A stretch of DNA of 64,000 bases from assembly GCA_937888635.1 (NCBI GenBank), contig CALARG010000004.1:7193-71192 (forward strand). Direction: 5' to 3'. Below the pieces are notes generated by a model, which did not search any database, was not told the origin of the DNA, and saw nothing but the letters and a program-made list of their open reading frames with translations. Positions 5,794-36,669 of the stretch are shown here, one piece after another (within the stretch, counting starts at the first letter, position 1; every line of letters starts with the position of its first letter). This stretch comes from an uncultured Alphaproteobacteria bacterium (GTDB lineage Bacteria; Pseudomonadota; Alphaproteobacteria; Rs-D84). The position numbers and the translations under genes were made by a program.

Positions 5794-8700
5794 ATGAATT
5801 TGAAATGCTTAATGTCCAGAATTTCGGCGTTTTTTGCGTCATTGTTGTTTATGGTTGTTTTTGCAACCGAATCGTTTGCGGCGATGTATTTGCCTGGACA
5901 GGTGATTGAAAAGTTTAACTATATCAGTAATGTGACCTTTACGGCGCAGTATACTGCGGTGGTGTGTGACGCAGGCACGTACCTGCCCGAAGGTGGCGAA
6001 GAATGTGTTGCGTGTCCGGCGGGGTATTATTGTTTAGGTGGTGGTGCGCCTGTTGTGTGTCCGGCGGGGCGCTATTGTTTGTCTGGCACACAAAGCGCAA
6101 ATGGTTCTGGGCTGGTCGCGGCTGGGTACTATTCAACGGGTGGTGCAAAAGTTCAAAATCCTCAATTTGCAGAAGACTGTGTTGGTGATGGTAATGCGTG
6201 TGGTTTAATTGATGCGGGATACTGGGGTGCGGCTGGCGCAACAACCAGTACTGGTTCTGGAAAGGTTGCGGCTGGATACTATAATCTGGGTGGTGGTACA
6301 TCGGCAACGCCAGAGGTTCGCGGAAAAGGTTGCGTAAATGTCAGCACCACGCAATGCGGTACGGTCGCACCAGGTTATTGGGGCGAAGCGGGCGCAACAA
6401 GATATGGTGGCTCTGGGGCTGTTGCGCCGGGATACTATTCAACAGGTGGTGCAACATCCAGAACACCAAGTGCCAGTGGCTGTGCCGGCAAGGTTGCGAT
6501 TATAGAAAATGGCAAGCTGATGGGTGCATCTGATGTTGATAACACGTGTGGACAGGTTCAGGCCGGATACTGGAACAATGCATGTGGTATTAATGCAACC
6601 GGTGGTGTTTGCAGTGCCGAATACCAAGGTGGTGTAATTGCAGCAGGTCATTGGGGAACAGTGGGCGCAACAGACAGTGCTGGGTCGGGACTTCTAACCC
6701 CAGGATATTATTCAACCGGTGGTGCAACAATTGAGTTCCCAGATCCAAATCAGTGTGTCGGTAATAATACATGCGGTGCGGTTGCAGCAGGATATTGGAA
6801 TAATGGTGGTGGTACATCTGCAAATGGAACATGTGTCAGTGGCAAGTCTTGTGGTCAGGTTAATGCGGGCTACTATTCAACTGGTGGTGGTACATCTGCA
6901 ACGCCAACAGCCGCAGGTAATGGATGTTTGGCTAATAAGTCTTGTGGTACATGTGCAAACTGGACATATTCTGGTGCGGGTGCGGCATCATGTACCGCCT
7001 GTCCAGCGGTAGAGTCTGGTTATGCAAAACTGGACAGCACAGGTACAGGATGGACGACATATCAGAAGTGTGTTGAAATTGCGACAGAATCACCAGAAAA
7101 CTGTGCATCTGGTAAATTGCAGAAGATCCCAACTGCATCTGGCGCAACGACATGGGCAACAGCAACAGTTAATGCGAATAATCCGTTGGTGGCAAAGCCG
7201 GGATATATCGTAAGTGGTACGGCATGTTTGTCAGAGGGCTATGTGGTGTCGTTTGAGACCAATGGTGGCACCGATGTAGCAGATATGACATGTACGGTTG
7301 AATCAGCGGATATTACCCTGCCAACACCAACCAAGACAGGTTATACATTTGGTGGATGGTATCAGAATTCTGCTTTGACAGGTAATGCGGTATCTGTGAT
7401 TGCCAAGGGAACATGTACATCTGCGTATAAACTGTATGCAAAATGGACGGTAATTGAACGCAAGATTACTTTGAATGCAAATGGTGGCACAATTGTTGGT
7501 GGCAGCAGTGCAACACCAAGTGCGTGTACGGTTGAAACGGCGGATATTACCCTGCCGAAACCAACCAAGACAGGTTATACATTTGGTGGATGGTATCAGA
7601 ATTCTGCTTTGACTGGTACTGCGGTGACCAAAATCGCTAAGGGTGCATGTTTGTCAGATTATACACTGTATGCCAAGTGGACGGTTAATACATATACTGT
7701 TACATTGGATGCGAATGGTGGTACAGGTGGTGATACATCTGTGACGGCGACATATGGTGAATTGTTACCAGCAATTAGCGCGTTGCCAAGCCAGGACGGT
7801 TATGACTTTAATGGTTATTGGTCTGCAAAGACAGGTGGTGTTCAGTATTATAATATGTCTGGTGCCGCAATTGAAAAATGGTCAACGGATGCAGCAGGTA
7901 CATTGTATGCACAATGGGCAGCAAAGGGGACCTGTGCGGCGGGTACATATTATAACGAAGAAACAGGTGCTGTGGAAACATGCCCAGCAGGCAGTTATTG
8001 TGCCGGTGGAACATGGGGCAATGATGGAAACAACTGTGCGATAGCAAAATGTCCAAGTGACTATCCAAACAGTGTTGCAGGCGCATCAGAGGAAGGACAG
8101 TGTTATAAGGCATCTCCAAAATGCTGGTGTTCGCATGATGAGGCAGAATGTGCTTCCAAGGGGGCGAATAGTTGTATGTATAATGATGTGCGGTTCCAGG
8201 GTGTGACCTATAAGTCAAATCCTGATATGTGTGTAGCTGCGCCTGGCAGTTCCGATAATACTTATTGTGAGATAATCAAGGTGTCTTGTAAGGCGGGGAC
8301 GTATTATACCCCAACTGGAGATATTGAAGATGGCAGTTGCGTATCATGCGCCACATTGGGGGATGGTTCTTTTAAGACTTCATATCCTTCGTTGGTAAAA
8401 TATGTTGCGGATTCTGATACAGGGTCAACGGCGTGCTTCAAATCGGTTGACTTGCCATGTACAGCGCCGGTTTGTCCTTTGAGTGGGACTGGGGTATGTG
8501 CCTATGATGCAAGTCACTCTATATTAGGTGGTGGATATTTGTTTTACGGTACAGATGAGCCATTGCCTGGTTCTGCAGCAGCGTATGTGTGCCCGAATGC
8601 ATCGTTCACATGTAATACAGGGTATGACAAGAATGAAAATGCGGATATAGATCCAACAGATGGATCGGCGTCTGTGCCAGAAGAACTGTGTACGCCGCAT

Positions 8701-11700
8701 GTGTATACATTTACATTGGATCCAAATGGTGGTGAAACGGCAGTTGGTAAGATATACGAAAAGTATTCTGTAGGTTGGTATAGTAATGAAGCGGCAACCG
8801 CTAAGATTACCAAGGTTGCGGTTCCGGTGCGTCCAGGCTATACATTCGCAGGATATTATACCAAGATGACTGCATTGGAAGGGGCTGTGCCTGTAATAGG
8901 TGTTGCGGGTAATATATTGGATGAACCAGATGTGGCTGCAGATGCTGTGCTGTATGCTTGGTGGCAGGTTAATACTTACACAGTTAAGTATAATGCGGCC
9001 GGTGCATCGGGAACGATGGACAGTGTGGTTCATACCTGTGATGAACCGTTGAATTTGACACCGAATGCGTTTACATCGGCAACAAATGATCAGCAATTCA
9101 TGGGATGGGCGACAGAGCCGAATGCGGCAACGCCGGAATACACAGATGGTCAAAAGGTTGTTAATTTGACGCTGGTCAATAATGCGGTGGTTACATTGTA
9201 CCCTGTGTGGAAGGCATGTACAGCATGTGCAGCGGGTAAAGGTGCAACATGTTCACTGACGGCGCCGGTTGGGGTTTGTACATATACAACTGCGTGTGCG
9301 GCTAATTATGAAAATCTGCAAAACGCGGGCAAGTATAATCCAACATGTTCTGCAGTTAAATATGCTGTAAACATGGAAACAAACGGTGGTGAAATCAGCA
9401 GTGACTATACAATGGTGTCACAGTGTACGGTTGAATCTGGTGTGATTGTATTGCCAACTGCGGCGCAGATTTCGCGTGAAGACTATCGCTTTGAGGGTTG
9501 GTATGATAATGTTGCGACCACAGGCAGTGCGATATCATCAATCCCAGCGGGTGGATGTACGACAAATAAGACATTGTATGCAAAATGGGTGATAAATGTT
9601 GAGATGTGTCAGCCAGGCATGTACTATAATGGTACTTCGTTTGTGGCATGTCCAAAGGGATACTATTGCCCAGGTGAAGGTAAAGTGACAATGGGTGTTG
9701 CAGGATGCCGTACCGTATGTCCAAGTGGATATGATGATGGTGGTACAGGGTACAGTGATGAATCACAATGTCAGATTTCTGTGCCACAGGGTTCTTACCT
9801 GGCCACAGCCAAGGGAACCAACACGACTGTTTGCCCTGCAGGGAAGTATACATCGGGTGCGGTTTTGGTTTCGTATGGTGATACCAGCAGTTGCGCATCT
9901 TGCGAGGCAGGCAATTATTGCAGCAATGGTACAAAGCGCAGTTGTGCGACCGAAACAGACGGCGTGTTTGCAAGCAGTGTGGCAAATAGTGACAATATTA
10001 ATGATTGCTATACTGTGACGGTGGCGGGTAAATACATTGCGGACAATGCTGTTAAGACCTGTGTTGTGCCTTATTACTGTCCGGGTGATATAAAGGTATC
10101 GTATGGCAATTCTGGTGGTAATTTATCGTGCGCAGATTTGTCAGATGATGTGACATGGCAAAGTGGCGTGACAGCCAGTGGGGCAAGTACACCTGATAAG
10201 TGCTATGTAGTGGTTGCGGACGGTAAATACTGGAATGGTGATGCGTTTGCAACATGTAAGGCAGGAACATACAAGACAGAACATAATGTCTATTATGGTC
10301 AGAAAAGTAGTTGTGCGACCTGCCCTGCGGGATATACTTCTGAAGCGGGTGCATCAGAATGTTATCTGACCACGACAGCGGGCAAGTATGTTGCGACCGC
10401 TGGCAAGGGTGAAGTTGAATGTAAGGCAGGCGATTTCTGCCCAGGTGGTGTCAAGGTTATGGTCAGCGGTGTTGGTGGAAACACAGCGTGTAAGACACTG
10501 GCAGGTGGTAAATACAGTATGTCTGCAGCCGGTACAAAGAGTGCGGATATGTGCTATACAGAAAGTTGCGCGTTGGCAACCAATGCAACAACGATGAGTG
10601 GTAAAGATTACTATGGTGCGTCTGTTGCGGATACATGTGTGGCGACATTATGTAAAGCAGGCTTTACAGTTGTTGGTGGTGCATGTTCAGTATGTCCAGC
10701 GAACAATGTATGTAATCCAGCCAAAGATGCGGGTAAACCATATACTTGTTCTGAATTGACAGGTGGGGTTTATACAAAGTCTGCGGCACAGACTGGTACA
10801 GTTGATAATTGCTATCTGACCACGACGGCGGGCAAGTATGTTGCGACTGCGGGTCAAGGCGAAGTTGAATGTCTGGCAGGTGGATACTGTGCGGGTGGTG
10901 TTGATGTAAAACGCACAGGCACAGGTGGCCGTGAAGCGTGCCCAGCGGGTTATGCAATGTCTGGGACGGGGGCGTCTGAGATAAATCAGTGCTATGCGAA
11001 CTGTGCTATGTATTCACATGCAACACAGATGGCGGGTAAAGACTTCTATGGAACGGGTGTTGATACCTGTGAAGCAGTAGAGTGTGAGACAGGATTTGTC
11101 TTGGCAAATGGTACATGTGGCAGCTGTCCGGCCAATAGCGTGTGCGATCCAAACTATGATGGTGGCAAACCGCATACATGTTCTGAATTGACCAATGGTA
11201 AGTATACCTTGTCGTTAGAGAACAGTTCATCAATTGATGCGTGTTATACGATAACGACACCGGGTAAGTATGTTGCGGTTGCAGGTCAAGGCGAAGTGGC
11301 ATGTAAGGTTGGTGATTACTGTTTGGGTGGCGTAAAGGTTATGTATACGGCCACAGGTGGTAATTCAGCGTGTTCAGCATTTGGTGCGGGTTATTCATCA
11401 GATGTTGGTGCAAGTGTAGAAACCCAGTGCTATCAGCGTTGTGCGTTGGCAGCAAATGCAACCCAGATGTCAGGTCGTGATTACTATGGAACGGATGCGA
11501 CAGATACATGTGCAGTTGCATCTTGTGTGTCAGGCTATACGGTTGCAGGTGGTGTATGTTCGGTATGCCCAGCGGATCATGTGTGCGACCCTGCCAAGGA
11601 TAATGGCGCACCACATACATGTTCTGAATTGACAGACGGTGTTTATACAAAGTCTGCAATGCAGAATGGGTCGGTTGATAATTGCTATCTGATTACAACG

Positions 11701-12921
11701 GCGGGTAAGTATGTTGCGACCGCAGGTCAAGGCGAAGTTGACTGTCTGGCGGGTGGATATTGCGCCGGTGGAGCCAAGATAATGCGTGTCGGTAAAGGTG
11801 GACGCGAGGTATGTCCAAACGGCTATGCGTTATCTGATTCAGGGGCAGCAAGTGCACAGCAGTGCTATACAAGTTGCGCAATGGCAACCAATGCCCAAGA
11901 AATGTTCGGTCGCGACTATTATGCAAATGGTGTGGATACATGTGAAATAACACTGTGTCGCCCGGGGTATACTTTGAACGCTGGTGTGTGCGCAGTATGT
12001 CCGGCAAATAATATCTGTACACCAGATATTGAACGCGGTAAACCACAACTGTGTTCAGATCTGACAAAGGGAACACACCAGTTCGCATCGGCAGGCTCTG
12101 AAAAGATTTCTGATTGCTATCTGAAATGTGAAGCCTATGATATTACCTATGGAACGGCGATTCCTGTGTCGGGTACTGAAAATTATCCGCTGCAGTGCAG
12201 ATTTGACGGTTTGTCTGTCACCAAGAATCCGTGCGACATAGTTAACGGAACATGTGTAGAAAGATCATGTAACTATAACTATGAAATGATTGGTGGTAAA
12301 TGTCAGGCATGTGCACGCGAAAATGCATTGTCATACAAGAAAGATGGTGGCAACTGTGTTGTAGAGTCGTGTGTCAGCGGATTCCATCCAAATGGCCAGG
12401 CCTGCGAAGTTGATACCGTAGAATGTTCTGTTCCAAATGCGGTTGCGGCGACACGCGTTTGGGATGCATCAAAGCAAGCGTTTGGTGAATGTGTAATCAC
12501 AGAATGCGAGGAAGGATATCATCTGGGGGCAAATACATGTCAGGCAGATGAACAGGTCTGTGAATTAGAACATGGTATTGGTATACGCGAATGGAATCAC
12601 AAGAAAAATACATGGGGCGATTGTATCGCAACCAAGTGTGATCCAGGCTATACAAATGACCGCAGCCAGACCAATGAACTGTGGAAACAGTGCGGACGAT
12701 GCAACAATATGTACAGTGCGGGTGGCGAGTTGGCGGCCAGCAGCTATGTTGATGGTTGTGAGATTGCGACTTGTATGTACGAAGGTGAGTTGTACACACT
12801 GGAAAACAATGAATGTGTTCTGATATGCGATACCTATTCAGATGAGACGGGATCGCGCAGATGGAATGCATCACGCAAGAAGTGTGAACGCACATGTGAA
12901 CCAGGATATATGTCTTGGTAA
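5794..12921 (+). CDS. Giant secreted Cys-rich repeat protein (2375 aa) with mixed repeat modules: ephrin-receptor-like CxxCPxGxYC Cys repeats, Gly/Tyr/Trp-rich (AGYW/GYYSTGG) repeats, at least six Listeria-Bacteroides (Flg_new) repeats, four tandem ~150-aa Cys-rich modules and EGF-like Cys-rich C-terminal modules
   Basis: RBS GAGAGGG is followed by a signal peptide MNLKCLMSRISAFFASLLFMVVFATESFAA. CVACPAGYYCLGG repeats are present. Flg_new-type repeats include VSFETNGGTDVADMTCTVESADITLPTPTKTGYTFGGWYQNSALTG...YKLYAKWT, found twice almost identically at nt 7237-7690. Repeated CYLTTTAGKYVATAGQGEVECLAGGYCAGG modules lie at roughly nt 10320-12000. A rho-independent terminator follows the gene. Confidence 0.8.
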   Translation: MNLKCLMSRISAFFASLLFMVVFATESFAAMYLPGQVIEKFNYISNVTFTAQYTAVVCDAGTYLPEGGEECVACPAGYYCLGGGAPVVCPAGRYCLSGTQSANGSGLVAAGYYSTGGAKVQNPQFAEDCVGDGNACGLIDAGYWGAAGATTSTGSGKVAAGYYNLGGGTSATPEVRGKGCVNVSTTQCGTVAPGYWGEAGATRYGGSGAVAPGYYSTGGATSRTPSASGCAGKVAIIENGKLMGASDVDNTCGQVQAGYWNNACGINATGGVCSAEYQGGVIAAGHWGTVGATDSAGSGLLTPGYYSTGGATIEFPDPNQCVGNNTCGAVAAGYWNNGGGTSANGTCVSGKSCGQVNAGYYSTGGGTSATPTAAGNGCLANKSCGTCANWTYSGAGAASCTACPAVESGYAKLDSTGTGWTTYQKCVEIATESPENCASGKLQKIPTASGATTWATATVNANNPLVAKPGYIVSGTACLSEGYVVSFETNGGTDVADMTCTVESADITLPTPTKTGYTFGGWYQNSALTGNAVSVIAKGTCTSAYKLYAKWTVIERKITLNANGGTIVGGSSATPSACTVETADITLPKPTKTGYTFGGWYQNSALTGTAVTKIAKGACLSDYTLYAKWTVNTYTVTLDANGGTGGDTSVTATYGELLPAISALPSQDGYDFNGYWSAKTGGVQYYNMSGAAIEKWSTDAAGTLYAQWAAKGTCAAGTYYNEETGAVETCPAGSYCAGGTWGNDGNNCAIAKCPSDYPNSVAGASEEGQCYKASPKCWCSHDEAECASKGANSCMYNDVRFQGVTYKSNPDMCVAAPGSSDNTYCEIIKVSCKAGTYYTPTGDIEDGSCVSCATLGDGSFKTSYPSLVKYVADSDTGSTACFKSVDLPCTAPVCPLSGTGVCAYDASHSILGGGYLFYGTDEPLPGSAAAYVCPNASFTCNTGYDKNENADIDPTDGSASVPEELCTPHVYTFTLDPNGGETAVGKIYEKYSVGWYSNEAATAKITKVAVPVRPGYTFAGYYTKMTALEGAVPVIGVAGNILDEPDVAADAVLYAWWQVNTYTVKYNAAGASGTMDSVVHTCDEPLNLTPNAFTSATNDQQFMGWATEPNAATPEYTDGQKVVNLTLVNNAVVTLYPVWKACTACAAGKGATCSLTAPVGVCTYTTACAANYENLQNAGKYNPTCSAVKYAVNMETNGGEISSDYTMVSQCTVESGVIVLPTAAQISREDYRFEGWYDNVATTGSAISSIPAGGCTTNKTLYAKWVINVEMCQPGMYYNGTSFVACPKGYYCPGEGKVTMGVAGCRTVCPSGYDDGGTGYSDESQCQISVPQGSYLATAKGTNTTVCPAGKYTSGAVLVSYGDTSSCASCEAGNYCSNGTKRSCATETDGVFASSVANSDNINDCYTVTVAGKYIADNAVKTCVVPYYCPGDIKVSYGNSGGNLSCADLSDDVTWQSGVTASGASTPDKCYVVVADGKYWNGDAFATCKAGTYKTEHNVYYGQKSSCATCPAGYTSEAGASECYLTTTAGKYVATAGKGEVECKAGDFCPGGVKVMVSGVGGNTACKTLAGGKYSMSAAGTKSADMCYTESCALATNATTMSGKDYYGASVADTCVATLCKAGFTVVGGACSVCPANNVCNPAKDAGKPYTCSELTGGVYTKSAAQTGTVDNCYLTTTAGKYVATAGQGEVECLAGGYCAGGVDVKRTGTGGREACPAGYAMSGTGASEINQCYANCAMYSHATQMAGKDFYGTGVDTCEAVECETGFVLANGTCGSCPANSVCDPNYDGGKPHTCSELTNGKYTLSLENSSSIDACYTITTPGKYVAVAGQGEVACKVGDYCLGGVKVMYTATGGNSACSAFGAGYSSDVGASVETQCYQRCALAANATQMSGRDYYGTDATDTCAVASCVSGYTVAGGVCSVCPADHVCDPAKDNGAPHTCSELTDGVYTKSAMQNGSVDNCYLITTAGKYVATAGQGEVDCLAGGYCAGGAKIMRVGKGGREVCPNGYALSDSGAASAQQCYTSCAMATNAQEMFGRDYYANGVDTCEITLCRPGYTLNAGVCAVCPANNICTPDIERGKPQLCSDLTKGTHQFASAGSEKISDCYLKCEAYDITYGTAIPVSGTENYPLQCRFDGLSVTKNPCDIVNGTCVERSCNYNYEMIGGKCQACARENALSYKKDGGNCVVESCVSGFHPNGQACEVDTVECSVPNAVAATRVWDASKQAFGECVITECEEGYHLGANTCQADEQVCELEHGIGIREWNHKKNTWGDCIATKCDPGYTNDRSQTNELWKQCGRCNNMYSAGGELAASSYVDGCEIATCMYEGELYTLENNECVLICDTYSDETGSRRWNASRKKCERTCEPGYMSW

Positions 12922-12945
12922 TGTGCAAGGAATCAAGGAAGGAAA

Positions 12946-12972
12946 AACCCGCCAATTGGCGGGTTCTTTGTT
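12946..12972 (+). terminator. Rho-independent terminator downstream of giant gene 1
   Basis: cccgccaattggcggg hairpin plus a T-run. A second hairpin, aatcccaattaagggatt, lies in the convergent region (terminator of the minus-strand ORF). Confidence 0.7.
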
Positions 12973-13000
12973 ATAAAAAAAATCCCAATTAAGGGATTGG

Positions 13001-13264
13001 TTATTTGGCGCCCTGGGTGCGCGCAGAATGCAGCGCGTGTCGCAATGCCTGTTCGGCAATTTGGCGAATTTTTGGTGCGAATGTGCGCATGTTCATTGTG
13101 TCAGCAACAGTGTTGCCAAACAAGCGCGCGATATATTCAATTTGTGTTGGTGCGATAATGTAAACATCACTGGTGATATCTTTTGGATTTAAGTTATGAA
13201 TTTGTTCTTGCATAATGCTAATTCCCCCTGCTTTGCCATGGTATTTTATCAGATTTTTTTGCAT
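13001..13264 (-). CDS. Small hypothetical protein (87 aa)
   Basis: ORF between convergent terminators and the secA promoter region. No recognisable motif; coding status is uncertain. Confidence 0.3.
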   Translation of the reverse strand: MQKNLIKYHGKAGGISIMQEQIHNLNPKDITSDVYIIAPTQIEYIARLFGNTVADTMNMRTFAPKIRQIAEQALRHALHSARTQGAK

Positions 13265-13363
13265 TTTGCACTTGTTTAATTTAAATAATGTTATTATATC
13301 ATAAAGTGATTGACCGAAAGGTGCAAAGTTGCTATATATTGCGTGATAAAATAAGGAAGAAAA

Positions 13364-24980: not shown

Positions 24981-25330
24981 ATAAGTTGCTAGTGTAAGTG
25001 GTTAGTGGTGGTCCCTGCGGGGCAATGGATACCGGCCTGCGCCGGTATGACGAAGAGGAAAAATGACCTGGGGCCTGCGGCCCGACCGCGGGATGACAGA
25101 AATGTTTAATTTTTTGCGGATACTAACAACTATTAACAACTAATATAAACTTTTATTTATCACAGTAAAAATAAGTCCGTCATACCGGCGCAGGCCGGTA
25201 TCCATTGTAATCATAAAACACAGTGGACCCCGACCTTCGCACGCGTGACGATTTTTTCCCGACACTAATCACTTACAACTTACACTAACAACTAACATAA
25301 ACTTTTATTTATCTGTAAAAATTGAAATAA
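24981..25330. repeat. Composite intergenic palindromic repeat locus (modules A/B/C/D), including an inverted duplication of module B
   Basis: Module A is a GT-rich tagtgtaagtggttagtggtgg run. Module B is gtccctgcggggcaatggataccggcctgcgccggtatgacg at 25018-25062 (the 8-bp-stem hairpin ataccggc-ctgc-gccggtat is at 25039-25058), and its reverse complement appears at 25186-25216. A reverse-orientation module A/D lies at 25260-25320. The same modules recur at 27410-27545 and 36716-37060. Confidence 0.8.
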
Positions 25331-27387: not shown

Positions 27388-27411
27388 GTCCCCGTAAAGG
27401 GGATTTTTTAG
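27388..27411 (+). terminator. Rho-independent terminator after gpmI
   Basis: tccccgtaaaggggat hairpin plus a T-run. Confidence 0.7.
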
Positions 27412-27545
27412 TTGTAAGTTGTTAGTGTAAGTGATTAGTGTCGGTTTTTATTTTCTTAGCCCCTGTTCCCGCGATGGCCGGAATGACAAATATGATGAAT
27501 CGTTTACTGCGATAAACTTTTATTTGTTTAAGAAAACGGAAATTT
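27410..27545. repeat. Intergenic palindromic repeat locus (modules A, C, D)
   Basis: tagttgtaagttgttagtgtaagtgattagtgtcgg (module A), ccctgttcccgcgatggccggaatgacaaa (module C) and gataaacttttatttg (module D), matching the copies at 24981-25330 and 36716-37060. Confidence 0.75.
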
Positions 27546-27660: not shown

Positions 27661-30600
27661 ATGTCTAGATTTCTGCGGTTTTACGCATTTTTATCTGTTT
27701 TGTTTTTTACCGGTAATTTGATGGCGGCGGGGTATACCTGCAGCACAACGGCGAGATATACTTCGTGTAAAGAAGGCTATTATATGTCCGATTGTGGCAG
27801 TACAGCCGCGAATTGGACTGGGCAGACAGTGGACGCAACCAATGGTAACACTTGTATTGCGTGCCCTGACGGATATGCGTGTGAAGGTGACAATGTGTGT
27901 CCTGTGCGGAATGGTATTAACTGTGCCGCGGGGACATATATCAAGGCGAATACAACAACATGTACCGCATGTCCGGCTGGGAATTATTGCCCAGGCATAA
28001 CCACAGATTCTGTGACCAGTACTTCATCAGATCGTGGTATAACACAATGTCCGGCGGGTTCCTATTGTCCCGCGGGCAGTAGCAATCCAAAGTCATGTCC
28101 AACAAATTATGGAAACAGTGCAGCCGGTTCAGATGCGGCATCAGATTGCTATGCCACTTGTGGGGTTGGTGCAGTGGTGACTGCGCCAATGACACCGTGC
28201 GTTACACCAGCGGGGGCATGGTATTCCCCATCGGCACATAATGTTTACTATGGCAAAATTTCACCAATTGGGTATTGTCAGTATGGGTCAGATTCCCGCA
28301 ATGGGGTAACCAGTTTGCATGATCAGGGGGCCGACTGTTTGGTGACAGTGCCGGCGGGGTACAGTTCCGCGGTCACAACCAGCACTGCACGTTATATCCG
28401 AATCAGTTCTGAAACAGGCGTATTCCCGTTGGCAGAGGTTCAGGCATATAATAATTCTTTGGGCCAGCTGAGTTTGGCATTGGGCAGCAGTGTGACAAAT
28501 GGTGTGAATGCATTGGATGGTTCTTTGGCGACACAGGCGGGCGTAACCACAGAATCGGCTGTTGGGGCGTATGCGATATTTGATTTGGGCAGTGCCAAGA
28601 CGATTACGAATATTAAGTTTGCATTGGGTAATGTGACCAGTGGATATAATATTGTAATTGCAATATCGTCTGATAAATCAAACTGGACAACTGTATTTAA
28701 TCAGACCGTTTTTGGTGTTTCGGTATTGCCGGGCGTGTTGCAAAATGTACCGCTTAACACCCGGACAAATACCAAGTGTACAGCCGGCACATATCATGGT
28801 TCAACGACGGTTGCTGCAACAAATGGTGTGACCTGTTCGGAGTGTCCGGCAGCGGTATGTAATGGAGAAACAAATTGTGCCAGTGGTTTTTCAACCCACA
28901 GAAATACATATCCTGCTAATTACCATTCTGATGATAATTTGAAATTGGTTAAGGCATGGTTCGCAACATCGTCAAATACAGGAAATACATCCATAGAGGA
29001 ATGTAAGCTGTCTTATACGTATACCAACAATCGTGGTACATTTAATCAGGATTCAGTTCGGTATCAATCCAGTACGGGACGCTATGATGGTGTGGGTGGT
29101 TCTGTTTACTATACTGTTTTGAATCCTGGTTATTATGGTTCTGGCAAAATGCCAGATGGGTACTGTGATACTGATACAAATACTCGTCGGCATTATTATC
29201 AGGATGCAGTATTATGTCCTGCGGGGAAATACTGTTCAGGATATACACAGATGCCATTGTGTTCTTCTGGAACTTATAATGATACAATGGGAATTGATGG
29301 TTTGTTATCTGGGGGATACTTTTCAACTGGTGGTGCGACAAAAGCTGCACCGACATCGGCAGATTGCGTTGGGGTTGTTGGAGCCGATATCTGGAGTTCA
29401 TCTGTTTCCCCGGTAAAAAATGTCTGTGGTCAACTCTTGCCTGGATATTATTCCATAGAGGGTGCTATCTTGCCTGCGCCGGGTGAATTGGGTGCAAAAA
29501 ATACCGCGGCATTGGGCTTTAGTATTGATTATTTGAATCAGGGGCTGGATTCTGTTCGGGCGGGATGCCTTGGAAGTGACAAATGCGGTATGGTTGCTGC
29601 GGGGTATTTTTCATCGGGCGCTGCAACTTATCCAAGGCCATCGTCTACAGGTTGTGTGAGTGGGACATGTGGCATTTGTCCGGCAGGTGCATATTCTGCC
29701 GCAGGCGCGACCAGTTGTACAGCATGCCCTGCCCTGGGTGGATCAAATTGGACCTGGAATATGTCACAGGGTGCCGGATCATTGTCTGCCTGTAAGCGTA
29801 AGGGTGTGCCCGATGGGTGCAGCGCCGGTACGGTGACGGATACTGCAACATCGGCAACAACATGGGGAAATCGTGTGCTGAACGAATGGGCGGCGCCTGG
29901 GAATACGCAAATCTTTGCACAACGGGGATATCAGATAGATGTGACCAATCTAAAATGTACAATATGCCCAAATGGACATTATAGTGGGGGATATACGAGC
30001 AGTTGCGCCCCAGTTAATGCTGGATATTATGCAACAGGCGCTGCAACTTCACCAGCCCCTTCGTCATCAGAAGATTGTGTGACTGGAACATGTGGCAAAG
30101 TTCAAAAGAATTGTTATGGCGCATCAGGGGCGACATCAGCATGCCCAAACAAATGTTCTGATTTGGCATATGGTACATACCCACAGTCGGATGAGGGCGC
30201 GGATTCACCGAATAAATGTTTCACATCGGGCAGCGCGATGGGCGGTGGATATATTGCAACAGCCGGTGGCCCACGCCGTGATTGTCCGTTGGGAACATAT
30301 AAGGAATATCATACTGTGTATTATGGTCAAACATCTCGGTGTACAGTCTGTCCAAGTGGGACCACCACAGCGACACAAGGCGCTCATAATACATCCAGCG
30401 CGTCATGCAGTGCTGAATGTACAAATGCTGATGGTGTGTATGAATGGCAAATGCCAGAATTGTCTTCGGATGGAGGAACAGTGTTAAAATTGTGTCAGGC
30501 GGCCAGTTGCAAGGCAGGAAACGCTTTGGGAACAACAAGCCAATGTAACGAATGTCCGGCGGGACATTATCAACCCGTTGATGGTTATTCCGACAGCATA

Positions 30601-33600
30601 TGTAGCATAACACCCGATGGATATTACAACAACGAGCCCGGCGCAACAGAGCCACTGCCGTGTCCCGCAGGGCAATGGTCGGTGGCGCAATCTAAATCAT
30701 GTACGACCTTGCCTGCTGGATACTGGAATAATGGTTGTGGTACTGATAACAAGGGTTCTGTACGTGAAGGTTATCTGGGTGGCGAGATTGCTGCGGGTTA
30801 TTGGGGCGAAGCTGGTGCGACAACTGCAACGGGTTCTGGTATGGTTAATGCAGGTTACTGGAACGATGGTTGTGGTATAAATGCAACAGGTGGCGTTTGC
30901 GACACAACCCATAAGGGTGGCCAGGTAAATGCCGGATACTATAACCTGGGTGGTGGTACATCGCCAACACCAGAGGTTCGCGGAAAAGGTTGCGCAAATG
31001 TCAGCACCACGCAATGTGGTACGGTTGCACCAGGCTATTGGGGGGCTGCGGGTGCAACACAATATGGGGGCTCTGGGGCCGTTGCGCCGGGATATTTTTC
31101 AACAGGTGGTGCAACATCCAGAACACCAAGTGCAAGTGATTGCGCCGGCAAGGTTGCGATTATAGAAAATGGCAAGCTGATGGGTGCATCTGATGTTAAT
31201 AACACATGTGGACAGGTTCAGGCCGGATACTGGAACAATGCATGTGGTATTAATGCAACTGGTGGTGTGTGCAGCACTAGTTACCAAGGTGGTATAATCG
31301 CAGCTGGATATTGGGGAACGGTGGGCGCAACGGACAGTGTTGGCTCAGGGCGCATTGCCCCAGGATATTATTCAACCGGTGGTGCAACAATTGAGTATCC
31401 AGATCCAAATCAGTGCGTTGGTAATAATACATGTGGTGCAATTGCGGCAGGATATTGGAATAATGGTGGTGGTACACTGGCCGCGCCAACGGCCCCAGGC
31501 AATGGGTGCCACAGTGATAAATCGTGTGGCACGGTTAACGGCGGATACTATTCAACTGGTGGTGGTACATCCGCAACGCCAACAGCCGCAAGTAATGGAT
31601 GTTTGGCTAATAAGTCTTGTGGTAAATTAAGTGCGATATACTATTCAAATGGTGGCAGCACATCTGATGGTGCGACATGTGTTAGTGGTAAAACATGCGG
31701 TACATGTAATGCAAATTATCGTGCAAATACCACAACAGGTAAGACATCCGCAAGCCAGTGTCAGGCATCTTGTGCGGCAGGCACGCGTGTTGCAACAGTG
31801 AATGCAGCATGTACATCGCCGGCGGGCGGATGGTTTAGTGCGGCCCATCTGGTAAATTATGGTCAGATATCACCGGTAAATTACTGTATGTCTGGTTATA
31901 CATCAGCCAGCACATCGGCCAGTGGTCACGATGCAAAATCTGATTGTGTCCAGACGGTTGCAGGTGGTAAATATGTGCCGTCGTCAAAGATTAATGCACG
32001 GTATATTAAGATTACATCTGATGGCAGTGTTAGTGTAAGCGGTTCTACAAATCCAAGTACACACTTGCTAGAAATGCAGGCGTTTGCATCCAGTGATGGT
32101 ACAGGCACAAATCTGCTGTCAGGTAAAGGAGCGGTTGCAGGTGATAAGATGTCTGCGGTGACAAATGGCAACTGGACACGTGGCGATGGGTATTCCTATG
32201 GCGAAGGGTCACCAATGATATTGGATTTAGGTTCTGTTCAGGCGTTGGGCAGTTTGAAGTTTGCGATGTATACTGATGGTCGTGAATATCAGAATGTTGC
32301 AATTGCGGTGTCTGAAGATAACACGACATATACAACAGTGTTTACAGCGAATAAACTGTTAACCCAGAATACAACCACCCCAACAGGCGAACTGGTTGTA
32401 TTAAGTGCAGCACCAAAATCATGTGCGGCCGGTACATCTAAGGCATCAGGTACGGTTGCGTTGGGCAACACAACGACATGCGGTACATGTGCAAACTGGA
32501 CATATTCTGGTGCGGGTGCGGCATCATGTACCGCCTGTCCAGCGGTAGAGTCTGGTTATGCAAAACTGGACAGCACAGGTACAGGATGGACGACATATCA
32601 GAAGTGTGTTGAAATTGCGACTGCATCGCCAGCAAACTGTAAGTCTGGTAAATTGCAGAAGATTCCAACTGCATCTGGTGCAACGACATGGGCAACAGCA
32701 ACAGTTAATGCGAATAATCCGTTGAATGCAAATCCGGGATATATCGTAAGTGGCACAATGTGCTCACAATGTACTGGTGCGACCTACTCTGCTGGTGGCA
32801 GTGCAACATCGTGTTCGGCCTGTGATCCAAATTATCAGGCGGATACCACTGCAGGTAAATCGGCTGCAACTCAGTGCCAGATTTCATGTGCGCCTGGTAC
32901 AGCAGTTGTAGAAAAGAACAAGGCATGTGCAGTGCTGTCAGGTGGTAAGTATAAGACGGGCACGGCATTGGTAAAATATGGTTCGTTATCGCCAACCGCA
33001 ACTGATAAAACATCAGGATGGGCGGTGGATACAGTGTATAGTTGCCCAAGCAGCTATGGCATTAGTGGCACAGCGGCGGCCAATCATGATGCACGCACGG
33101 ATTGCACTATTAGCTGTCCGGCGGGAACCCAGGTTGCAAGTACGAACGCAACATGCACAACACCAAGTGGCACAACATGGTACACATCTGGACACAGTGT
33201 TGCGGCGGGCTCAACATCTGGAACAAATGTAAAAAGCTGTAATTCTGGTTATACGACGCCGAATACAACAACACAATCTGATCACGACGCGGCAGCGGAT
33301 TGTAAGATTAGTTGTGATGCTGGATACTATGTTCCAAATGCAGGTCAAGGATGTAAGATTTGTGCGCCGGGTAAGTATTGTGAGGCTGTGTCAGATATTG
33401 ATCAGACAAAGATATCGGCTGTGACCGGCGATGTGACGGCGGGATACTATTCCAGTGCGGGCGGTACATCGGCAACGGGTACATGTTTGTCTGGCAATTC
33501 TTGTGGCAGTTGTTCAACCGGAACAGGTTCTAATGGGCGTCTGTTGTATTCAAATGCTGGGGCGGCATCATGTTCGGAATGTCCAGCGGCAACAGGCACA

Positions 33601-36600
33601 TTGGCCAGCCGTGTGACGGGGTATAGTGGATGGTGGTCAAATAATATCCATAACAAAATTGGTGGGTGCTATGCGAATTTCTCTGACAGTGATGATACTG
33701 CAACATACCGAACAATGTGTTATTACAACGCAACAGATGGCACATATGGTGGCGAAAACAGCAGTTGTCAGTTCTATGCCCCAACGGCATGCAGTGGCGG
33801 ATACTATTCAGTTATTGATAAAACATCTGAATGGAGCACGTATGGATATGCGTACTGTAAGGGTGTGGATTGCATGAAGGGTAAGGTTTGTGGTCTGACC
33901 GATGCTGGTTCATACAGTCCAGATGGCGCAACAACACAGACCAAGTGTGTAATGGGTTCGTATACCGACACAACAGGTCAAAGCGCATGTAAGGCATGTG
34001 CAGGTGGCAAGACAAACAGCGCAGATGGTGCAACATCGTGTACAGCAACCTGCTCTAATGCGACGGGTGTGACAGGTTGGGAAACACCGGTTTGGGACAA
34101 CACAACCAACAAGATGACCAATTTGTGCACGGTTAAGGCAACAGCGGGCTGTTCGGCAAATTATTACAAGAACAGCAATGCGTGCACTGCATGCCCAAGT
34201 GCGACCTATCCATATAGTGTGGCAGGCGCAACAGCACAAACACAGTGCTATGCAAATGTGACATTGAACAAGAATGGATTTAGTGGTTCTATTGCGGCTG
34301 GTTTGGGCACAGGGTGCAAGGTTGTATCTGCTGCGACAGGTACAAATAATGCGACACTGCAGGTGTATTACAATACAGAATGTACATTGCCAACAATCAG
34401 CGGATTTACCCAGACGGGTTATACTGCGGCCAGCGGTTGGGCATCTGTGAATACGATTGGTGCAAGTGCAGTGACCAAGTTGCCGGCATCAACATCAAAA
34501 CCTGCGGCGACATATTATGCGCGCAAGACAACATGTGGTGCAGATTACTATAAGAAAGATGCAACGACATGCAGCACATGTGCAAGTGGTACGGATGGCA
34601 ACTATACCAAGTCTGCAGCAGGCACGGCCAGTGATGTGAATGTATGTTATCTGAATACAACGGCCAAGAACTTTGTTAAGACACCGGGCGCAGGTCAAAC
34701 AACATGTGAGAAAGGCAACTATTGCCCAGGTTCGGTCAAGGTGTATTATGGCGGAACAGCATCTGATACACACCCAACAACCGGTGGCAGTACACAATGT
34801 CCGGCAAACAGCTATTGCGTGGCGGGTGTAAGCGAACCAGTTGCGTGTTCAACACTGGGTGGTGGTTTGTATAAGAACAGTACAGCAGGTGCAAGCGCGG
34901 CAGAAGATTGCAACTTTACAACAACGGCGGGTAAGTACATGGTTGCGAATACCGATACTGCACAGACAACATGCCCAGCCAAACAGTACTGCACAGCAGA
35001 AACGCTGAACTGGCCAAATGTCAGTGTGCTGAACGACGGCGGTTGGAATGACTGTCCAGATGCAGCAACGCATAAACGTACATCGTTCCCTGCGGATTAC
35101 TATAGCCCGACGTTTGCAAGCACCAGTGTGACAAGTTCTACAGGTAAAGGATCTATAAGTGGGTGCCAGGTATTAAACTGGTTGGATTCAGCAACGCATG
35201 GTGGATTATACGAATATGTGAACTATAATCCAAACTCTGGCAAGTATGATACAACATACACATACAGATGGCATAGTGCAAAGCCTGGTTATTATCTGAC
35301 TGATAAAAATGGTTGTGGAGGATATGCATATTATCAGACCATCAAAGAATGCGAGCCAGGTTCGTACTGTCCGGGTAAAAACAAGGTTTCATGTAATAAA
35401 GATAACCAGGCAACGGTTCATACGGATACATTTGGTATATATTCGTGTTCGGCGGATACAGATGGCAACTATGAACTGTCATCTGGTGGGGTGGCGGCGA
35501 ACAGCATTAACAAATGCTATCTTGTGACCGATGTTGGTGATTGGGTGGCCACAGCGAACGCAGCCCAGACAGATTGTCAGGCAGATGGTTGGTGTCCTGG
35601 TAATGCGACCGTGTACTATGGCAGTACCGGTGGACGCACAGCATGTGTGGCACCATATGGATTGGCCGCAGCGGGGTCAGATGATGCGAATGATTGCTAT
35701 CTGAAGACCACGGCGGGACAGTATGTTGAGACCGCGGGCGCAGGTCAGACAGTATGCCCGGCAGGATACTGGTGCGTTGGTAAAGTCACCATATATAAGG
35801 GCGGTTCGGTCACCGGTCGCAGCACAAAGGGTGGCAGTGAACAATGCCCCGCCGGTTATCGTGATGGCACAACAGGATACAGTTTACAGTCACAGTGCAC
35901 AATGAATGTTCTGGGCGGTAAGTATGTTAAAGTTGTCAACGAAAGCAGTGCCAGTGGTACATGCGATTTAGGAACATATAAACCTGCACACCCGGTCACA
36001 TATGGCAAGACATCCAGCTGTATTCCTTGTCCGAATGCAACATATGCAGCACAGGAAGGCATGAGCGCATGTGAAGCATGTCCGACGGCAACAAAGTATG
36101 CGGATAAGGTTGTGTCGTATGGATCAAACAAAAAAGCGCGTTCAGGGTGTTATGCCAGATTTGAAGATACAGTAAAAAACGGCGAAACAACGTATTTTAG
36201 TTGTTATCTGCGGTCTGGTGATGATTATGGAACACTGACCAGTGGTAATAATTGTTGGACGCATGGGGCGCGCACAAAGTGTGACGCAGGGTATTATTCA
36301 CCGGTTGTACCAAACGCCCAATATGATGAAATGTGGTACATGAATTATTCAACAGTTGTTAATAATTTGTGTATGCCAGTAGAATCTGGATACTGGTCGG
36401 GGGCGGACAGCCTGACCCGTACGGCGTGCGAAACAGGCCTGGTGACATGTGGTGCGGGGTTGTGCGCGAACGAGGCCGGCGACTGTGGACGCAAGTTGCA
36501 TGCAGGTGATAATGTAATCTATCTGCGCAGCCAAAAGCGTACGACACCATCGCTGAATGTGAAAATTGGTGATAAGATGTTCTATGGAAACCTGGGGGAT

Positions 36601-36669
36601 GTTATTGCGAACAGTCTGCGGGTTAAGAATGGAACAAAGAATTACTCGGTTGTTAATGATAACCAATAG
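27661..36669 (+). CDS. Giant secreted Cys-rich repeat protein, paralog of 5794..12921 (about 3000 aa): ephrin-receptor-like Cys repeats, two discoidin-like (F5/8 type C) domains, Gly/Tyr/Trp-rich repeats, Cys-rich modules
   Basis: The likely start is ATG 27661 (AAGTGGGAAGA ATG; signal peptide MSRFLRFYAFLSVLFFTGNLMAAG); the ORF track starts at 27601. There are CxxCPAGxYCPG repeats. Discoidin-like segments are ARYIRISSETGVFPLAEVQAYNN... (about nt 28380-28740) and ARYIKITSDG...LLEMQAFAS... (about nt 31985-32350). A block of about 230 aa is near-identical to gene 1. The same 3' flank and terminator motif as gene 1 are present. Confidence 0.8.
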   Translation: MSRFLRFYAFLSVLFFTGNLMAAGYTCSTTARYTSCKEGYYMSDCGSTAANWTGQTVDATNGNTCIACPDGYACEGDNVCPVRNGINCAAGTYIKANTTTCTACPAGNYCPGITTDSVTSTSSDRGITQCPAGSYCPAGSSNPKSCPTNYGNSAAGSDAASDCYATCGVGAVVTAPMTPCVTPAGAWYSPSAHNVYYGKISPIGYCQYGSDSRNGVTSLHDQGADCLVTVPAGYSSAVTTSTARYIRISSETGVFPLAEVQAYNNSLGQLSLALGSSVTNGVNALDGSLATQAGVTTESAVGAYAIFDLGSAKTITNIKFALGNVTSGYNIVIAISSDKSNWTTVFNQTVFGVSVLPGVLQNVPLNTRTNTKCTAGTYHGSTTVAATNGVTCSECPAAVCNGETNCASGFSTHRNTYPANYHSDDNLKLVKAWFATSSNTGNTSIEECKLSYTYTNNRGTFNQDSVRYQSSTGRYDGVGGSVYYTVLNPGYYGSGKMPDGYCDTDTNTRRHYYQDAVLCPAGKYCSGYTQMPLCSSGTYNDTMGIDGLLSGGYFSTGGATKAAPTSADCVGVVGADIWSSSVSPVKNVCGQLLPGYYSIEGAILPAPGELGAKNTAALGFSIDYLNQGLDSVRAGCLGSDKCGMVAAGYFSSGAATYPRPSSTGCVSGTCGICPAGAYSAAGATSCTACPALGGSNWTWNMSQGAGSLSACKRKGVPDGCSAGTVTDTATSATTWGNRVLNEWAAPGNTQIFAQRGYQIDVTNLKCTICPNGHYSGGYTSSCAPVNAGYYATGAATSPAPSSSEDCVTGTCGKVQKNCYGASGATSACPNKCSDLAYGTYPQSDEGADSPNKCFTSGSAMGGGYIATAGGPRRDCPLGTYKEYHTVYYGQTSRCTVCPSGTTTATQGAHNTSSASCSAECTNADGVYEWQMPELSSDGGTVLKLCQAASCKAGNALGTTSQCNECPAGHYQPVDGYSDSICSITPDGYYNNEPGATEPLPCPAGQWSVAQSKSCTTLPAGYWNNGCGTDNKGSVREGYLGGEIAAGYWGEAGATTATGSGMVNAGYWNDGCGINATGGVCDTTHKGGQVNAGYYNLGGGTSPTPEVRGKGCANVSTTQCGTVAPGYWGAAGATQYGGSGAVAPGYFSTGGATSRTPSASDCAGKVAIIENGKLMGASDVNNTCGQVQAGYWNNACGINATGGVCSTSYQGGIIAAGYWGTVGATDSVGSGRIAPGYYSTGGATIEYPDPNQCVGNNTCGAIAAGYWNNGGGTLAAPTAPGNGCHSDKSCGTVNGGYYSTGGGTSATPTAASNGCLANKSCGKLSAIYYSNGGSTSDGATCVSGKTCGTCNANYRANTTTGKTSASQCQASCAAGTRVATVNAACTSPAGGWFSAAHLVNYGQISPVNYCMSGYTSASTSASGHDAKSDCVQTVAGGKYVPSSKINARYIKITSDGSVSVSGSTNPSTHLLEMQAFASSDGTGTNLLSGKGAVAGDKMSAVTNGNWTRGDGYSYGEGSPMILDLGSVQALGSLKFAMYTDGREYQNVAIAVSEDNTTYTTVFTANKLLTQNTTTPTGELVVLSAAPKSCAAGTSKASGTVALGNTTTCGTCANWTYSGAGAASCTACPAVESGYAKLDSTGTGWTTYQKCVEIATASPANCKSGKLQKIPTASGATTWATATVNANNPLNANPGYIVSGTMCSQCTGATYSAGGSATSCSACDPNYQADTTAGKSAATQCQISCAPGTAVVEKNKACAVLSGGKYKTGTALVKYGSLSPTATDKTSGWAVDTVYSCPSSYGISGTAAANHDARTDCTISCPAGTQVASTNATCTTPSGTTWYTSGHSVAAGSTSGTNVKSCNSGYTTPNTTTQSDHDAAADCKISCDAGYYVPNAGQGCKICAPGKYCEAVSDIDQTKISAVTGDVTAGYYSSAGGTSATGTCLSGNSCGSCSTGTGSNGRLLYSNAGAASCSECPAATGTLASRVTGYSGWWSNNIHNKIGGCYANFSDSDDTATYRTMCYYNATDGTYGGENSSCQFYAPTACSGGYYSVIDKTSEWSTYGYAYCKGVDCMKGKVCGLTDAGSYSPDGATTQTKCVMGSYTDTTGQSACKACAGGKTNSADGATSCTATCSNATGVTGWETPVWDNTTNKMTNLCTVKATAGCSANYYKNSNACTACPSATYPYSVAGATAQTQCYANVTLNKNGFSGSIAAGLGTGCKVVSAATGTNNATLQVYYNTECTLPTISGFTQTGYTAASGWASVNTIGASAVTKLPASTSKPAATYYARKTTCGADYYKKDATTCSTCASGTDGNYTKSAAGTASDVNVCYLNTTAKNFVKTPGAGQTTCEKGNYCPGSVKVYYGGTASDTHPTTGGSTQCPANSYCVAGVSEPVACSTLGGGLYKNSTAGASAAEDCNFTTTAGKYMVANTDTAQTTCPAKQYCTAETLNWPNVSVLNDGGWNDCPDAATHKRTSFPADYYSPTFASTSVTSSTGKGSISGCQVLNWLDSATHGGLYEYVNYNPNSGKYDTTYTYRWHSAKPGYYLTDKNGCGGYAYYQTIKECEPGSYCPGKNKVSCNKDNQATVHTDTFGIYSCSADTDGNYELSSGGVAANSINKCYLVTDVGDWVATANAAQTDCQADGWCPGNATVYYGSTGGRTACVAPYGLAAAGSDDANDCYLKTTAGQYVETAGAGQTVCPAGYWCVGKVTIYKGGSVTGRSTKGGSEQCPAGYRDGTTGYSLQSQCTMNVLGGKYVKVVNESSASGTCDLGTYKPAHPVTYGKTSSCIPCPNATYAAQEGMSACEACPTATKYADKVVSYGSNKKARSGCYARFEDTVKNGETTYFSCYLRSGDDYGTLTSGNNCWTHGARTKCDAGYYSPVVPNAQYDEMWYMNYSTVVNNLCMPVESGYWSGADSLTRTACETGLVTCGAGLCANEAGDCGRKLHAGDNVIYLRSQKRTTPSLNVKIGDKMFYGNLGDVIANSLRVKNGTKNYSVVNDNQ

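Follow-up and report, generated by a model that had tools for sequence, protein, structure and literature searches.

Two giant cysteine-rich modular genes of Candidatus Enterousia: putative surface attachment proteins with conserved termini and exchanged cassettes

Introduction

Giant adhesins of the repeats-in-toxin (RTX) and Bap-like kinds, such as LapA, SiiE and MpIBP, are thousands of residues long, arrange tandem modules as an extended stalk, carry ligand-binding (often carbohydrate-binding) modules and conserved termini for export or retention, and show strong strain-to-strain variation in length and repeat content. The same plan is recognisable in two genes analysed here, g1 (open reading frame, ORF, 5794-12921, plus strand) and g2 (ORF 27661-36669, plus strand), which lie in a 64,000-nucleotide stretch of contig CALARG010000004.1 from an uncultured alphaproteobacterium (hereafter the window; all coordinates refer to it). 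In contrast to the RTX adhesins, the g1 and g2 proteins have a predicted Sec-type N-terminal signal, about 6% cysteine and no RTX or type I secretion signature, and their terminal domains are distinct, with no match in Pfam or NCBIfam.

Variant-specific surface proteins (VSPs) of Giardia and surface antigens of ciliates (Ephrin_rec_like, equivalent to GCC2_GCC3) share with g1 and g2 the reiterated CxxC..G.Y modules, the organization as a multigene family whose members are conserved at the ends and variable in the middle, and a kind of variation that would suit switching of antigens or of specificity. The two bacterial proteins differ from Giardia VSPs in being about five times larger, in containing Flg_new and discoidin modules, and in lacking a C-terminal transmembrane helix and a CRGKA tail; the VSP family PF03302 gave no match at E <= 1 in ten segments, no C-terminal hydrophobic segment is present, and no sign of common descent was found. 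Nanohaloarchaeota, Omnitrophota and members of the Candidate Phyla Radiation (CPR; Vampirococcus) likewise combine a tiny genome with one or two giant secreted proteins that take up 1-2% of their DNA and are thought to mediate cell-cell contact, but the host of g1 and g2 belongs to another phylum (diderm Alphaproteobacteria), and its proteins differ in their domains and in their Cys-rich chemistry. Finally, the InlB B-repeat/Flg_new (TIGR02543) proteins of Firmicutes and Bacteroidota have a counterpart in six bona fide repeats of g1, and several relatives of g1 and g2 are named "InlB B-repeat-containing protein" by NCBI; however, the repeat accounts for about 20% of g1 and does not occur in g2, neither the termini nor the remaining architecture is related, and the host is a Gram-negative bacterium.

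The host is Candidatus Enterousia (order Rs-D84), an alphaproteobacterium of the gut whose genome is below 1 Mb (listed in the NCBI taxonomy under Alphaproteobacteria incertae sedis), in line with the original prediction, made from the letters of the window, of a genome-reduced alphaproteobacterium. Enterousia genomes measure 0.75-1.0 Mb and lack the tricarboxylic acid cycle, respiration, part of glycolysis and standard uptake transporters, and a partner-dependent lifestyle has been predicted by the authors of that study, in whose text none of the words giant, adhesin, cysteine and surface occurs (PMC12306168). Metagenome-assembled genomes (MAGs) of Rs-D84 are also known from flagellate-free termites, and hence the partner need not be a protist.

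Here we describe g1 and g2 as apparent members of a lineage-specific family of giant, probably Sec-exported, Cys-rich modular proteins of Candidatus Enterousia and its relatives (Rs-D84), with conserved termini and a mosaic middle. We regard them, with somewhat more confidence than doubt, as attachment proteins that are exported to and displayed on the surface, with recombination reshuffling their variable middle.

Results

Two intact genes with family-specific termini

Both genes are single frames, as originally claimed, and their architectures recur in independent assemblies. Gene g1 is an uninterrupted ORF of 2375 aa, whose exact sequence and 94-99% identical orthologues are found in independent assemblies (members of its cluster are 2369-2375 aa long and lie on separate contigs). 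The frame of g2 is open from a TTG at 27601 up to 36669; ATG 27661 is the best candidate for the start, giving 3002 aa, because a Shine-Dalgarno-like GGGAAG site lies 5 nt 5' of this codon and homologues begin at MSRF. A 97% identical orthologue of g2, covering 99% of its length, is present in the nearest strain, in two independent samples. The main parts of the genes and their termini are as follows:

27661-36669, plus strand: gene g2, 3002 aa; intact ORF, gpmI-g2-dnaK synteny
5794-5883, plus strand: signal-peptide-like N-terminus of g1, aa 1-30, ...ESFA-A (Kyte-Doolittle 19-residue window, 2.03)
27661-27885, plus strand: family-conserved putative signal peptide and first module of g2, MSRFLRF...NLMA-AGYTC....YTSC..GYY (homologue comparison)
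12019-12918, plus strand: g1-type C-terminal Cys-rich region, ~290 aa, ending ...DETGS..WN...KKC.RTC.PGY.SW, conserved across clusters
36382-36666, plus strand: conserved C-terminal domain of g2, ~95 aa (alignment A1, profile search)

The richness in Cys, Gly, Thr and Ala noted earlier is confirmed by composition (G 12.6, A 12.1, T 10.2 and C 6.5% in g1; G 12.8, T 12.2, A 11.7, S 10.2 and C 5.8% in g2; 155-174 cysteines per protein). The only hydrophobic segment of either protein is N-terminal and is followed by an A-x-A-like site; in g2 it ends ...NLMA-A, with a value of 1.46 in the same 19-residue window. The signal peptides of the original prediction are consistent with these observations, and both N-termini can be described as signal-peptide-like, probably of the Sec type.

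Searches yielded 143 homologues of g2 and 240 of g1 at E < 1e-5, mostly of 1.4-5.1 kaa among the matches listed, with product names either "hypothetical" or "InlB B-repeat-containing protein". Source-named homologues are nearly all from MAGs of uncultured gut Alphaproteobacteria; the two with other names probably come from mis-binned contigs. Members of the g2 type have a conserved MSRFLRF...NxxA-AGYTC....YTSC..GYY N-terminus (in 189 of 194 local matches it is where the protein begins), a mosaic middle and a conserved C-terminal domain, while the N-terminus of g1 is conserved in five close clusters only.

The C-terminal domain of g2 was aligned over the last ~95 residues of 23 diverse members, with g2 as the seed (alignment A1). 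Fifteen columns are invariant, and the pattern reads ...TRT.C..GL.T.G.G..A.E..DCGR.LH.G...IYLRS.K.TTPSLNVK.G...FYGN......L.VK.G...YSV..D..-COOH. Its profile, searched against 1.84 billion cluster representatives, identified 613 of them at E <= 1e-3 and 403 at E <= 1e-10, the domain being almost always at the extreme C-terminus. A survey of orthologs and copy number, as proposed with the original prediction, covered 80 species-level genome loci (L004-L083; the hosts include yak, sheep, deer, goat, buffalo, mouse and human): in 69 of them the domain is followed by at most 7 residues before the stop codon, a few members bear an extra tail of 110-136 aa, and there are one to three genes with this domain per MAG. 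A member of 249 aa consists of a signal peptide, one Cys-rich module and the C-terminal domain, and nothing more. AlphaFold2 models the domain of g2 as beta-rich, with six predicted strands (predicted local distance difference test, pLDDT, 74), and it has no credible match in Pfam (alignment scanned) and none in NCBIfam or the PDB. Judging from these matches, g2 is one of hundreds of proteins in a large unnamed family that is defined by this C-terminal domain; the domain appears to be undescribed and is the most distinctive feature of the finding.

The ~290-aa C-terminal region of g1 has no Pfam match; at least 25 other clusters end in it (48-85% identity), most of which have g2-like N-termini. 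In more distant relatives, the g1 position is taken by a gene of the g2 type. We define two classes by terminal pattern, to which both genes can be assigned on sequence criteria. Class 1 combines an M(S/G)R(F/I)LR...A-AGY(T/S)C....YTSC..GYY N-terminus with the ~95-aa C-terminal domain (g2 has both, g1 neither), and class 2 has the ~290-aa Cys-rich C-terminal region ...DETGS..WN...KKC.RTC..GY..W-COOH (present in g1, absent from g2).

No secretion signal had been seen at either C-terminus in the original prediction. This holds for the known types, but both C-termini proved to be conserved and family-specific. Neither protein has an LPXTG motif, RTX repeats (0-1 GGxGxD matches) or a match to an autotransporter family in Pfam or NCBIfam. 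The C-terminal domain of g2, with its ~95 aa, is far shorter than the ~250-300-aa barrel of type V autotransporters, and the C-terminus of g1 is Cys-rich; both proteins are set apart from type I RTX adhesins by their scarcity of GGxGxD, their N-terminal signal-like segment and their abundant cysteines; and g2 has neither the type IX secretion system C-terminal domain TIGR04183 nor a PEP-CTERM or LPXTG sorting domain.

In 31 of the 80 loci, the giant gene with the C-terminal domain lies directly upstream of secA (~630 nt, same strand), a slot held by g1 in the window (compare 12921-13364, from the g1 stop codon onwards); this adjacency may be merely conserved synteny in reduced genomes. The same Cys-rich repeats of ~50 aa follow a prepilin-type N-terminus in two relatives from outside the lineage (P0148, with GFTLIE; P0335, with PF07963), and therefore the repeat modules appear to be displayed on different anchors in other bacteria.

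Cassettes exchanged between g1 and g2

The two genes had been described as paralogous, which applies to parts of them. Overall, g1 and g2 align at ~23-30% identity via shared repeat types and have different N- and C-termini, but two blocks are far more similar at the DNA level (blastn):

6271-6952, plus strand: shared block A, g1 copy, 86.8% nt identity to 30931-31627 in g2
6943-7220, plus strand: shared block B, g1 copy, encoding a ~85-aa beta-rich module TCANWTYS...GYIVSGTAC, 94.6% nt identity to 32479-32756
32479-32756, plus strand: shared block B, g2 copy

The longest exact match between the genes, 140 nt, lies in block B. The blocks abut in g1 and are ~850 nt apart in g2. The synonymous divergence (dS) is 0.36 for block A (232 codons) and 0.116 for block B, as compared with 0.03-0.14 for housekeeping orthologues of the window strain and the related strain L003; this similarity exceeds what protein-level constraint would give and argues for recent exchange. 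By sequence comparison, g1 and g2 are best regarded as partial paralogs with two recently exchanged cassettes.

Part of g2 is also replaced between strains. Relative to strain L003, the upstream and downstream flanks of g2 are 92 and 96.9% identical, whereas ~59% of the gene aligns at 86-96% identity and the remainder (~41%) is replaced. This comparison was made by DNA alignment, as blastp coverage at >= 80% identity is uninformative for g2 orthologues (gapped alignments dilute identity). Gene g1 is 94% identical to and collinear with the related protein P0003, which appears to come from L003 too.

At the g1 locus of another MAG (L087; gene order DUF2817-gene-secA), the gene holds block A, a discoidin cassette and block B, in a stretch collinear with g2 of the window at 85.7% identity, the level of its flanks. 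Thus, the discoidin modules, originally considered to be restricted to gene 2, are restricted to it in this genome but not across MAGs, where another gene at the g1 locus has the same cassette.

Not all mosaicism in public MAGs need be biological. A 19-kb contig (L086; ENA ERZ27317734 k141_40326) aligns to positions 1-6312, then 32479-36774, then 36915-42831 of the window; within block B it passes from 5' g1 sequence to 3' g2 sequence, and the 25 kb in between, with secA, dnaE, rsmH, two hypothetical genes and gpmI, are missing. The contig is almost certainly chimeric, misassembled through the shared repeat. The protein P0197, with a g1 N-terminus and the g2 C-terminal domain, was considered as a swap of termini at one locus and rejected, since it is encoded by L086, where the genes are joined in the shared cassette and secA and dnaE are missing.

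Module composition

Most of the modules listed originally could be recognised in domain searches. The Pfam check suggested with them placed Flg_new (g1) and F5_F8_type_C and Ephrin_rec_like (g2) above the respective cut-offs.

6091-6963, plus strand: GYY/GYW Gly-Tyr-Ser-Thr-rich repeats of g1, aa ~100-390; ten GY[YWF] motifs spaced by 19-46 aa
7240-7917, plus strand: three Flg_new (Listeria-Bacteroides) repeats of g1 (PF09479, 119.7 bits, three stretches)
8716-9588, plus strand: three more Flg_new repeats of g1 (PF09479, 63.4 bits, three stretches; LYA.W ends at aa 1053, 1135 and 1261)
10360-11784, plus strand: reiterated ~150-aa Cys-rich modules of g1, ~450-nt period (self-blastn, 64-72% identity)
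30703-31650, plus strand: main GYY/GYW repeat region of g2, holding the block A copy (motif positions, blastn)
36010-36102, plus strand: best Ephrin_rec_like stretch of g2 (PF07699; whole protein 28.0 bits vs. cut-off 23.1, three stretches)

The claim of at least six Listeria-Bacteroides repeats in gene 1 only stands: the whole g1 protein reaches 164.2 bits with Flg_new (PF09479, cut-off 27) in six stretches with six LYA.W repeat ends, TIGR02543 also matches it (79.5 bits, cut-off 20.95), and g2 has no Flg_new match. The ~150-aa modules likewise exist as described; they have no Pfam match in g1. The GYY/GYW repeats, also seen before, total 11 GY[YWF] motifs in g1 and 22 in g2, with 0-2 Cys per unit, and match no Pfam family. 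The ephrin-like repeats were overstated, especially for g1: the family is above the cut-off in g2, but g1 scores 11.6 bits (E = 0.25), and g2 has four copies of the literal CxxCPxGxY motif as against one in g1. No Pfam family covers about 40% of g1 (aa 1429-2375) or most of g2, and a scan of g2 against NCBIfam yielded no family at E <= 0.01.

An AlphaFold2 model of g1 aa 95-480 (19-row alignment) has pLDDT ~25 across the GYY/GYW repeats, and only the last ~85-aa module, that of block B, is folded (pLDDT 55-96, beta strands). A Foldseek search of this model, including the 85-aa module, against the PDB found nothing under E = 5, and a PDB sequence search with g1 gave no match.

Discoidin-like modules in an apparently permuted order

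Two segments of g2 resemble F5/8 type C (discoidin, CBM32) domains:

28381-28767, plus strand: discoidin/CBM32-like module 1 of g2 (isolated segment, PF00754 28.2 bits; PF22633 27.9 bits)
31981-32415, plus strand: discoidin-like module 2 of g2 (PF00754 30.0 bits natively)

The whole g2 protein scores 41.4 bits with PF00754 in two copies, g1 has no match to this family, and the isolated modules reach the cut-off (28.2 and 30.0 vs. 28.2 bits). The native matches cover positions 15-85 and 4-95 of the 127 positions of the profile, i.e., not the canonical full-length order. The strands with the pattern ARYI[RK]I...E[VM]QA[YF] normally end an F5/8 type C domain; in the g2 modules they come before the Pfam-matched part, so that the strands closing the canonical domain lead here. 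We moved the N-terminal ARYI.I...E.QA[YF] segment in silico to the C-terminal end of each module and repeated the Pfam scan. Module 1 then rose from 28.2 to 36.0 bits with PF00754 (coverage 15-113) and matched PF22633 over its full length (1-91 of 91), and module 2 went from 30.0 to 34.8 bits, reaching 42.1 bits once a copy-specific insert was trimmed, with coverage up to position 114. As re-permutation lengthens the profile coverage and adds 5-12 bits, circular permutation fits, and the modules appear to be circularly permuted.

Module 1 also has a weak sequence match to AlyQ (chain 7d29, E = 0.003), the sole sequence match to the PDB. Module 2 sits in the ~850-nt stretch (31627-32479) between blocks A and B that is absent from g1; by the coordinates of the blocks, this stretch is likely an insertion.

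Flanking elements and neighbouring genes

Candidate regulatory elements flank both genes; the promoter-like and terminator-like ones rest on consensus matches only:

5686-5715, plus strand: promoter-like site of g1, TTGTCA-18-TAAAAT (consensus scan, 10/12 matches; weak)
12946-12965, plus strand: terminator-like hairpin after g1, 8-bp stem with 6 GC pairs, 25 nt past the stop codon
27490-27660, plus strand: 5' leader of g2, purine-rich just 5' of the ATG, near-invariant in three strains (alignment A2)
36695-36711, no strand assigned: GC-rich terminator-like hairpin, 26 nt past the g2 stop codon (consensus scan)

The leader of g2 is near-invariant in the three strains although the coding flanks differ by 3-8%, and an in-frame KEKKKVGR before MSRF recurs in many distant species. 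It could be a conserved translational or regulatory leader, or a longer n-region of the signal peptide. Scanned against Rfam, the window gave no match over its whole length, leaders included. Phase variation at the 5' end of g2 was considered since the related proteins P0067 and P0069 start 41 aa downstream, and was rejected on the evidence of the P0067 locus, where the DNA shows no disruption and is near-identical to the window, so that the late start of P0067 is a choice of the gene caller.

Together, g1 and g2 occupy 25.2% of the window, close to the 25% estimated originally, and ~1.8% of a genome of ~0.9 Mb. Their neighbours are ordinary chromosomal genes: ruvB, tolQ/R/A-like genes, DUF2817, secA, dnaE, rsmH, gpmI, dnaK, tsaD, xseA and recN. 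The relative synonymous codon usage (RSCU) correlates with that of housekeeping genes at 0.86 (g1) and 0.90 (g2), inside the range of 0.71-0.94 for individual housekeeping genes, which agrees with the claim of housekeeping-like codon usage; the GC content is slightly higher than that of housekeeping genes due to the Gly/Ala-rich composition.

Between rsmH and gpmI, ORFs at 21129-23696 and 23743-24942 encode secreted-looking Cys-rich proteins of 855 and 399 aa, which gave no match in Pfam or NCBIfam; strain L003 has similar-sized genes in the same position (845 and 399 aa; dS of the larger gene 0.136). They may be part of the same surface repertoire as g1 and g2. Intergenic clusters of GTAAGTG/GTTAGTG-type heptamers (24984-25322, 27411-27440, 36712-37016 and 53398-53411; 11 matches vs. 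0.41 expected by chance) are accompanied by GC-rich palindromes (25023-25052 with 25178-25207; 36732-36775 with 36915-36958); such clusters stand on both sides of g2 and look like repetitive extragenic palindromic (REP) elements. Directly downstream of dnaK, an AbiEii-family nucleotidyltransferase toxin of a type IV toxin-antitoxin/abortive infection system is encoded at 39600-40535, minus strand (78.9 bits), and also occurs in L003 and L086. The region 57312-62889 has a GC content of 0.36-0.41 vs. ~0.45 elsewhere and contains ORFs with glycosyltransferase-like motifs (judged by eye); it may be a surface-polysaccharide island. Finally, 50121-52046 encodes a 641-aa protein with an N-terminal membrane segment and weak, sub-threshold, coiled-coil-like Pfam matches.

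Discussion

We favour, by a modest degree of belief, the explanation of g1 and g2 as surface-displayed attachment proteins, because Sec-type signals, binding-type modules, conserved termini, cassette turnover, exchange between the two loci and a partner-dependent host all point in this direction; an adhesin function is plausible on these grounds. The signal peptide would direct the proteins to the periplasm via SecYEG/SecA, where, or after export, the Cys-rich modules would fold into long rod- or fibre-like arrays. The C-terminal region (the ~95-aa beta-hairpin domain in g2, the ~290-aa Cys-rich region in g1) would then serve passage to the surface or retention there, and the middle would present the binding modules (discoidin/CBM32-like, Flg_new and the 85-aa beta module) for attachment to a partner surface, either host mucus or epithelium or another microbe, the latter being an equally possible partner. 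Exchange, insertion and deletion of cassettes between paralogous loci and strains would diversify the middle and so change binding specificity, antigenicity or both, which may be why the variation is selected.

Several observations weigh against this explanation. The expression, surface location and binding of both proteins are predictions from sequence. No outer-membrane secretion or anchoring machinery was identified; in this respect the window holds only TolQ/TolR/TolA-like genes and secA, and clustering of downstream neighbours at the 80 loci revealed no dedicated secretion partner, only housekeeping synteny (secA at 31/80, dnaE at 19/80). It is not obvious how a fermentative anaerobe lacking a respiratory chain would oxidise ~155-174 cysteines. 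The rod or fibre shape is an assumption, as the GYY repeats are modelled at pLDDT ~25. Part of the mosaicism in public MAGs may be an assembly artefact of the kind seen in L086; the cassette with the discoidin module at the g1 locus of L087 is a possible case.

The same properties could describe released or coat-forming proteins, i.e., a surface-layer-like envelope, an extracellular matrix, or a shield against phages or immunity, varying for evasion. The signal peptide, size, repeats and hypervariability fit such a role, and the conserved termini could serve self-assembly or anchoring; but discoidin modules of carbohydrate-binding type and Flg_new repeats are typical of adhesins rather than of lattice-forming proteins, there are just one to three copies per genome, and a coat protein would be expected to be highly expressed. 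We consider this possible though improbable, and the two roles are not mutually exclusive. A location confined to the periplasm or cell envelope, with g1 and g2 as structural or scaffold parts that are never exposed, is less probable still. It would explain why neither the window nor Pfam and NCBIfam searches revealed a signal or machinery for translocation across the outer membrane, and it suits the commonest position of these genes, directly upstream of secA and beside tolQ/R/A-like genes (31/80 loci). That synteny may, however, just reflect stable gene order in reduced genomes; a folded rod of 2400-3000 aa is ill-suited to the periplasm, and strain-level hypervariability and cassette exchange are hard to reconcile with an internal structural protein.

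The original prediction had also proposed eukaryote-like modules, ligand mimicry and interaction with a host, and no test supports these parts of it. Ephrin_rec_like and F5/8 type C are families best known from eukaryotes, and weak TNFR_ELAPOR1 matches (E = 0.002-0.011) might recall host ligands of the ephrin-receptor, TNFR or discoidin kind. However, the named homologues are all bacterial MAG proteins, with no eukaryotic protein among the matches listed, the codon usage is native, Ephrin_rec_like exceeds its cut-off by a small margin in g2 and falls short of it in g1, the discoidin modules appear permuted when compared with the canonical order, and the only PDB sequence match, AlyQ, is bacterial. 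A eukaryotic origin of the modules with mimicry of host ligands is, hence, very unlikely. That the giant ORFs are themselves artefacts, either of short-read assembly (chimeras or collapsed repeats) or of pseudogene decay, is hardly credible. The genes are repeat-rich and stand on a MAG contig, and L086, a g1::g2 fusion via the shared cassette with 25 kb missing, demonstrates the hazard. On the other hand, open frames of 7.1 and 9.0 kb are not products of chance, the same architectures are found in independent samples and assemblies, the longest exact match between the genes is only 140 nt, and the termini are conserved over hundreds of representatives.

A bolder and rather doubtful extension is that the C-terminal types of g1 and g2 mark an unrecognised route of export and anchoring in a genome-reduced diderm, with giant disulfide- or metal-stabilised fibres forming the attachment organelle of an episymbiotic alphaproteobacterium and gene conversion among two or three expression loci resetting its specificity. 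Such a route, if true, would be a bacterial counterpart of the VSP-type antigenic variation of protists.

The conserved C-terminal domain provides a handle for finding the whole family and its export or anchoring partner, the modules of carbohydrate-binding type are suitable for expression and ligand screening, and the conserved termini for strain-tracking primers or probes; caution is needed as short-read MAG assemblies at such loci can be chimeric. Candidatus Enterousia is uncultured, widespread in the guts of humans, ruminants, mice and birds, and predicted to depend on a partner. As g1 and g2 account for ~1.8% of its genome, are kept intact and are actively diversified, they are obvious candidates for the machinery by which it contacts that partner.

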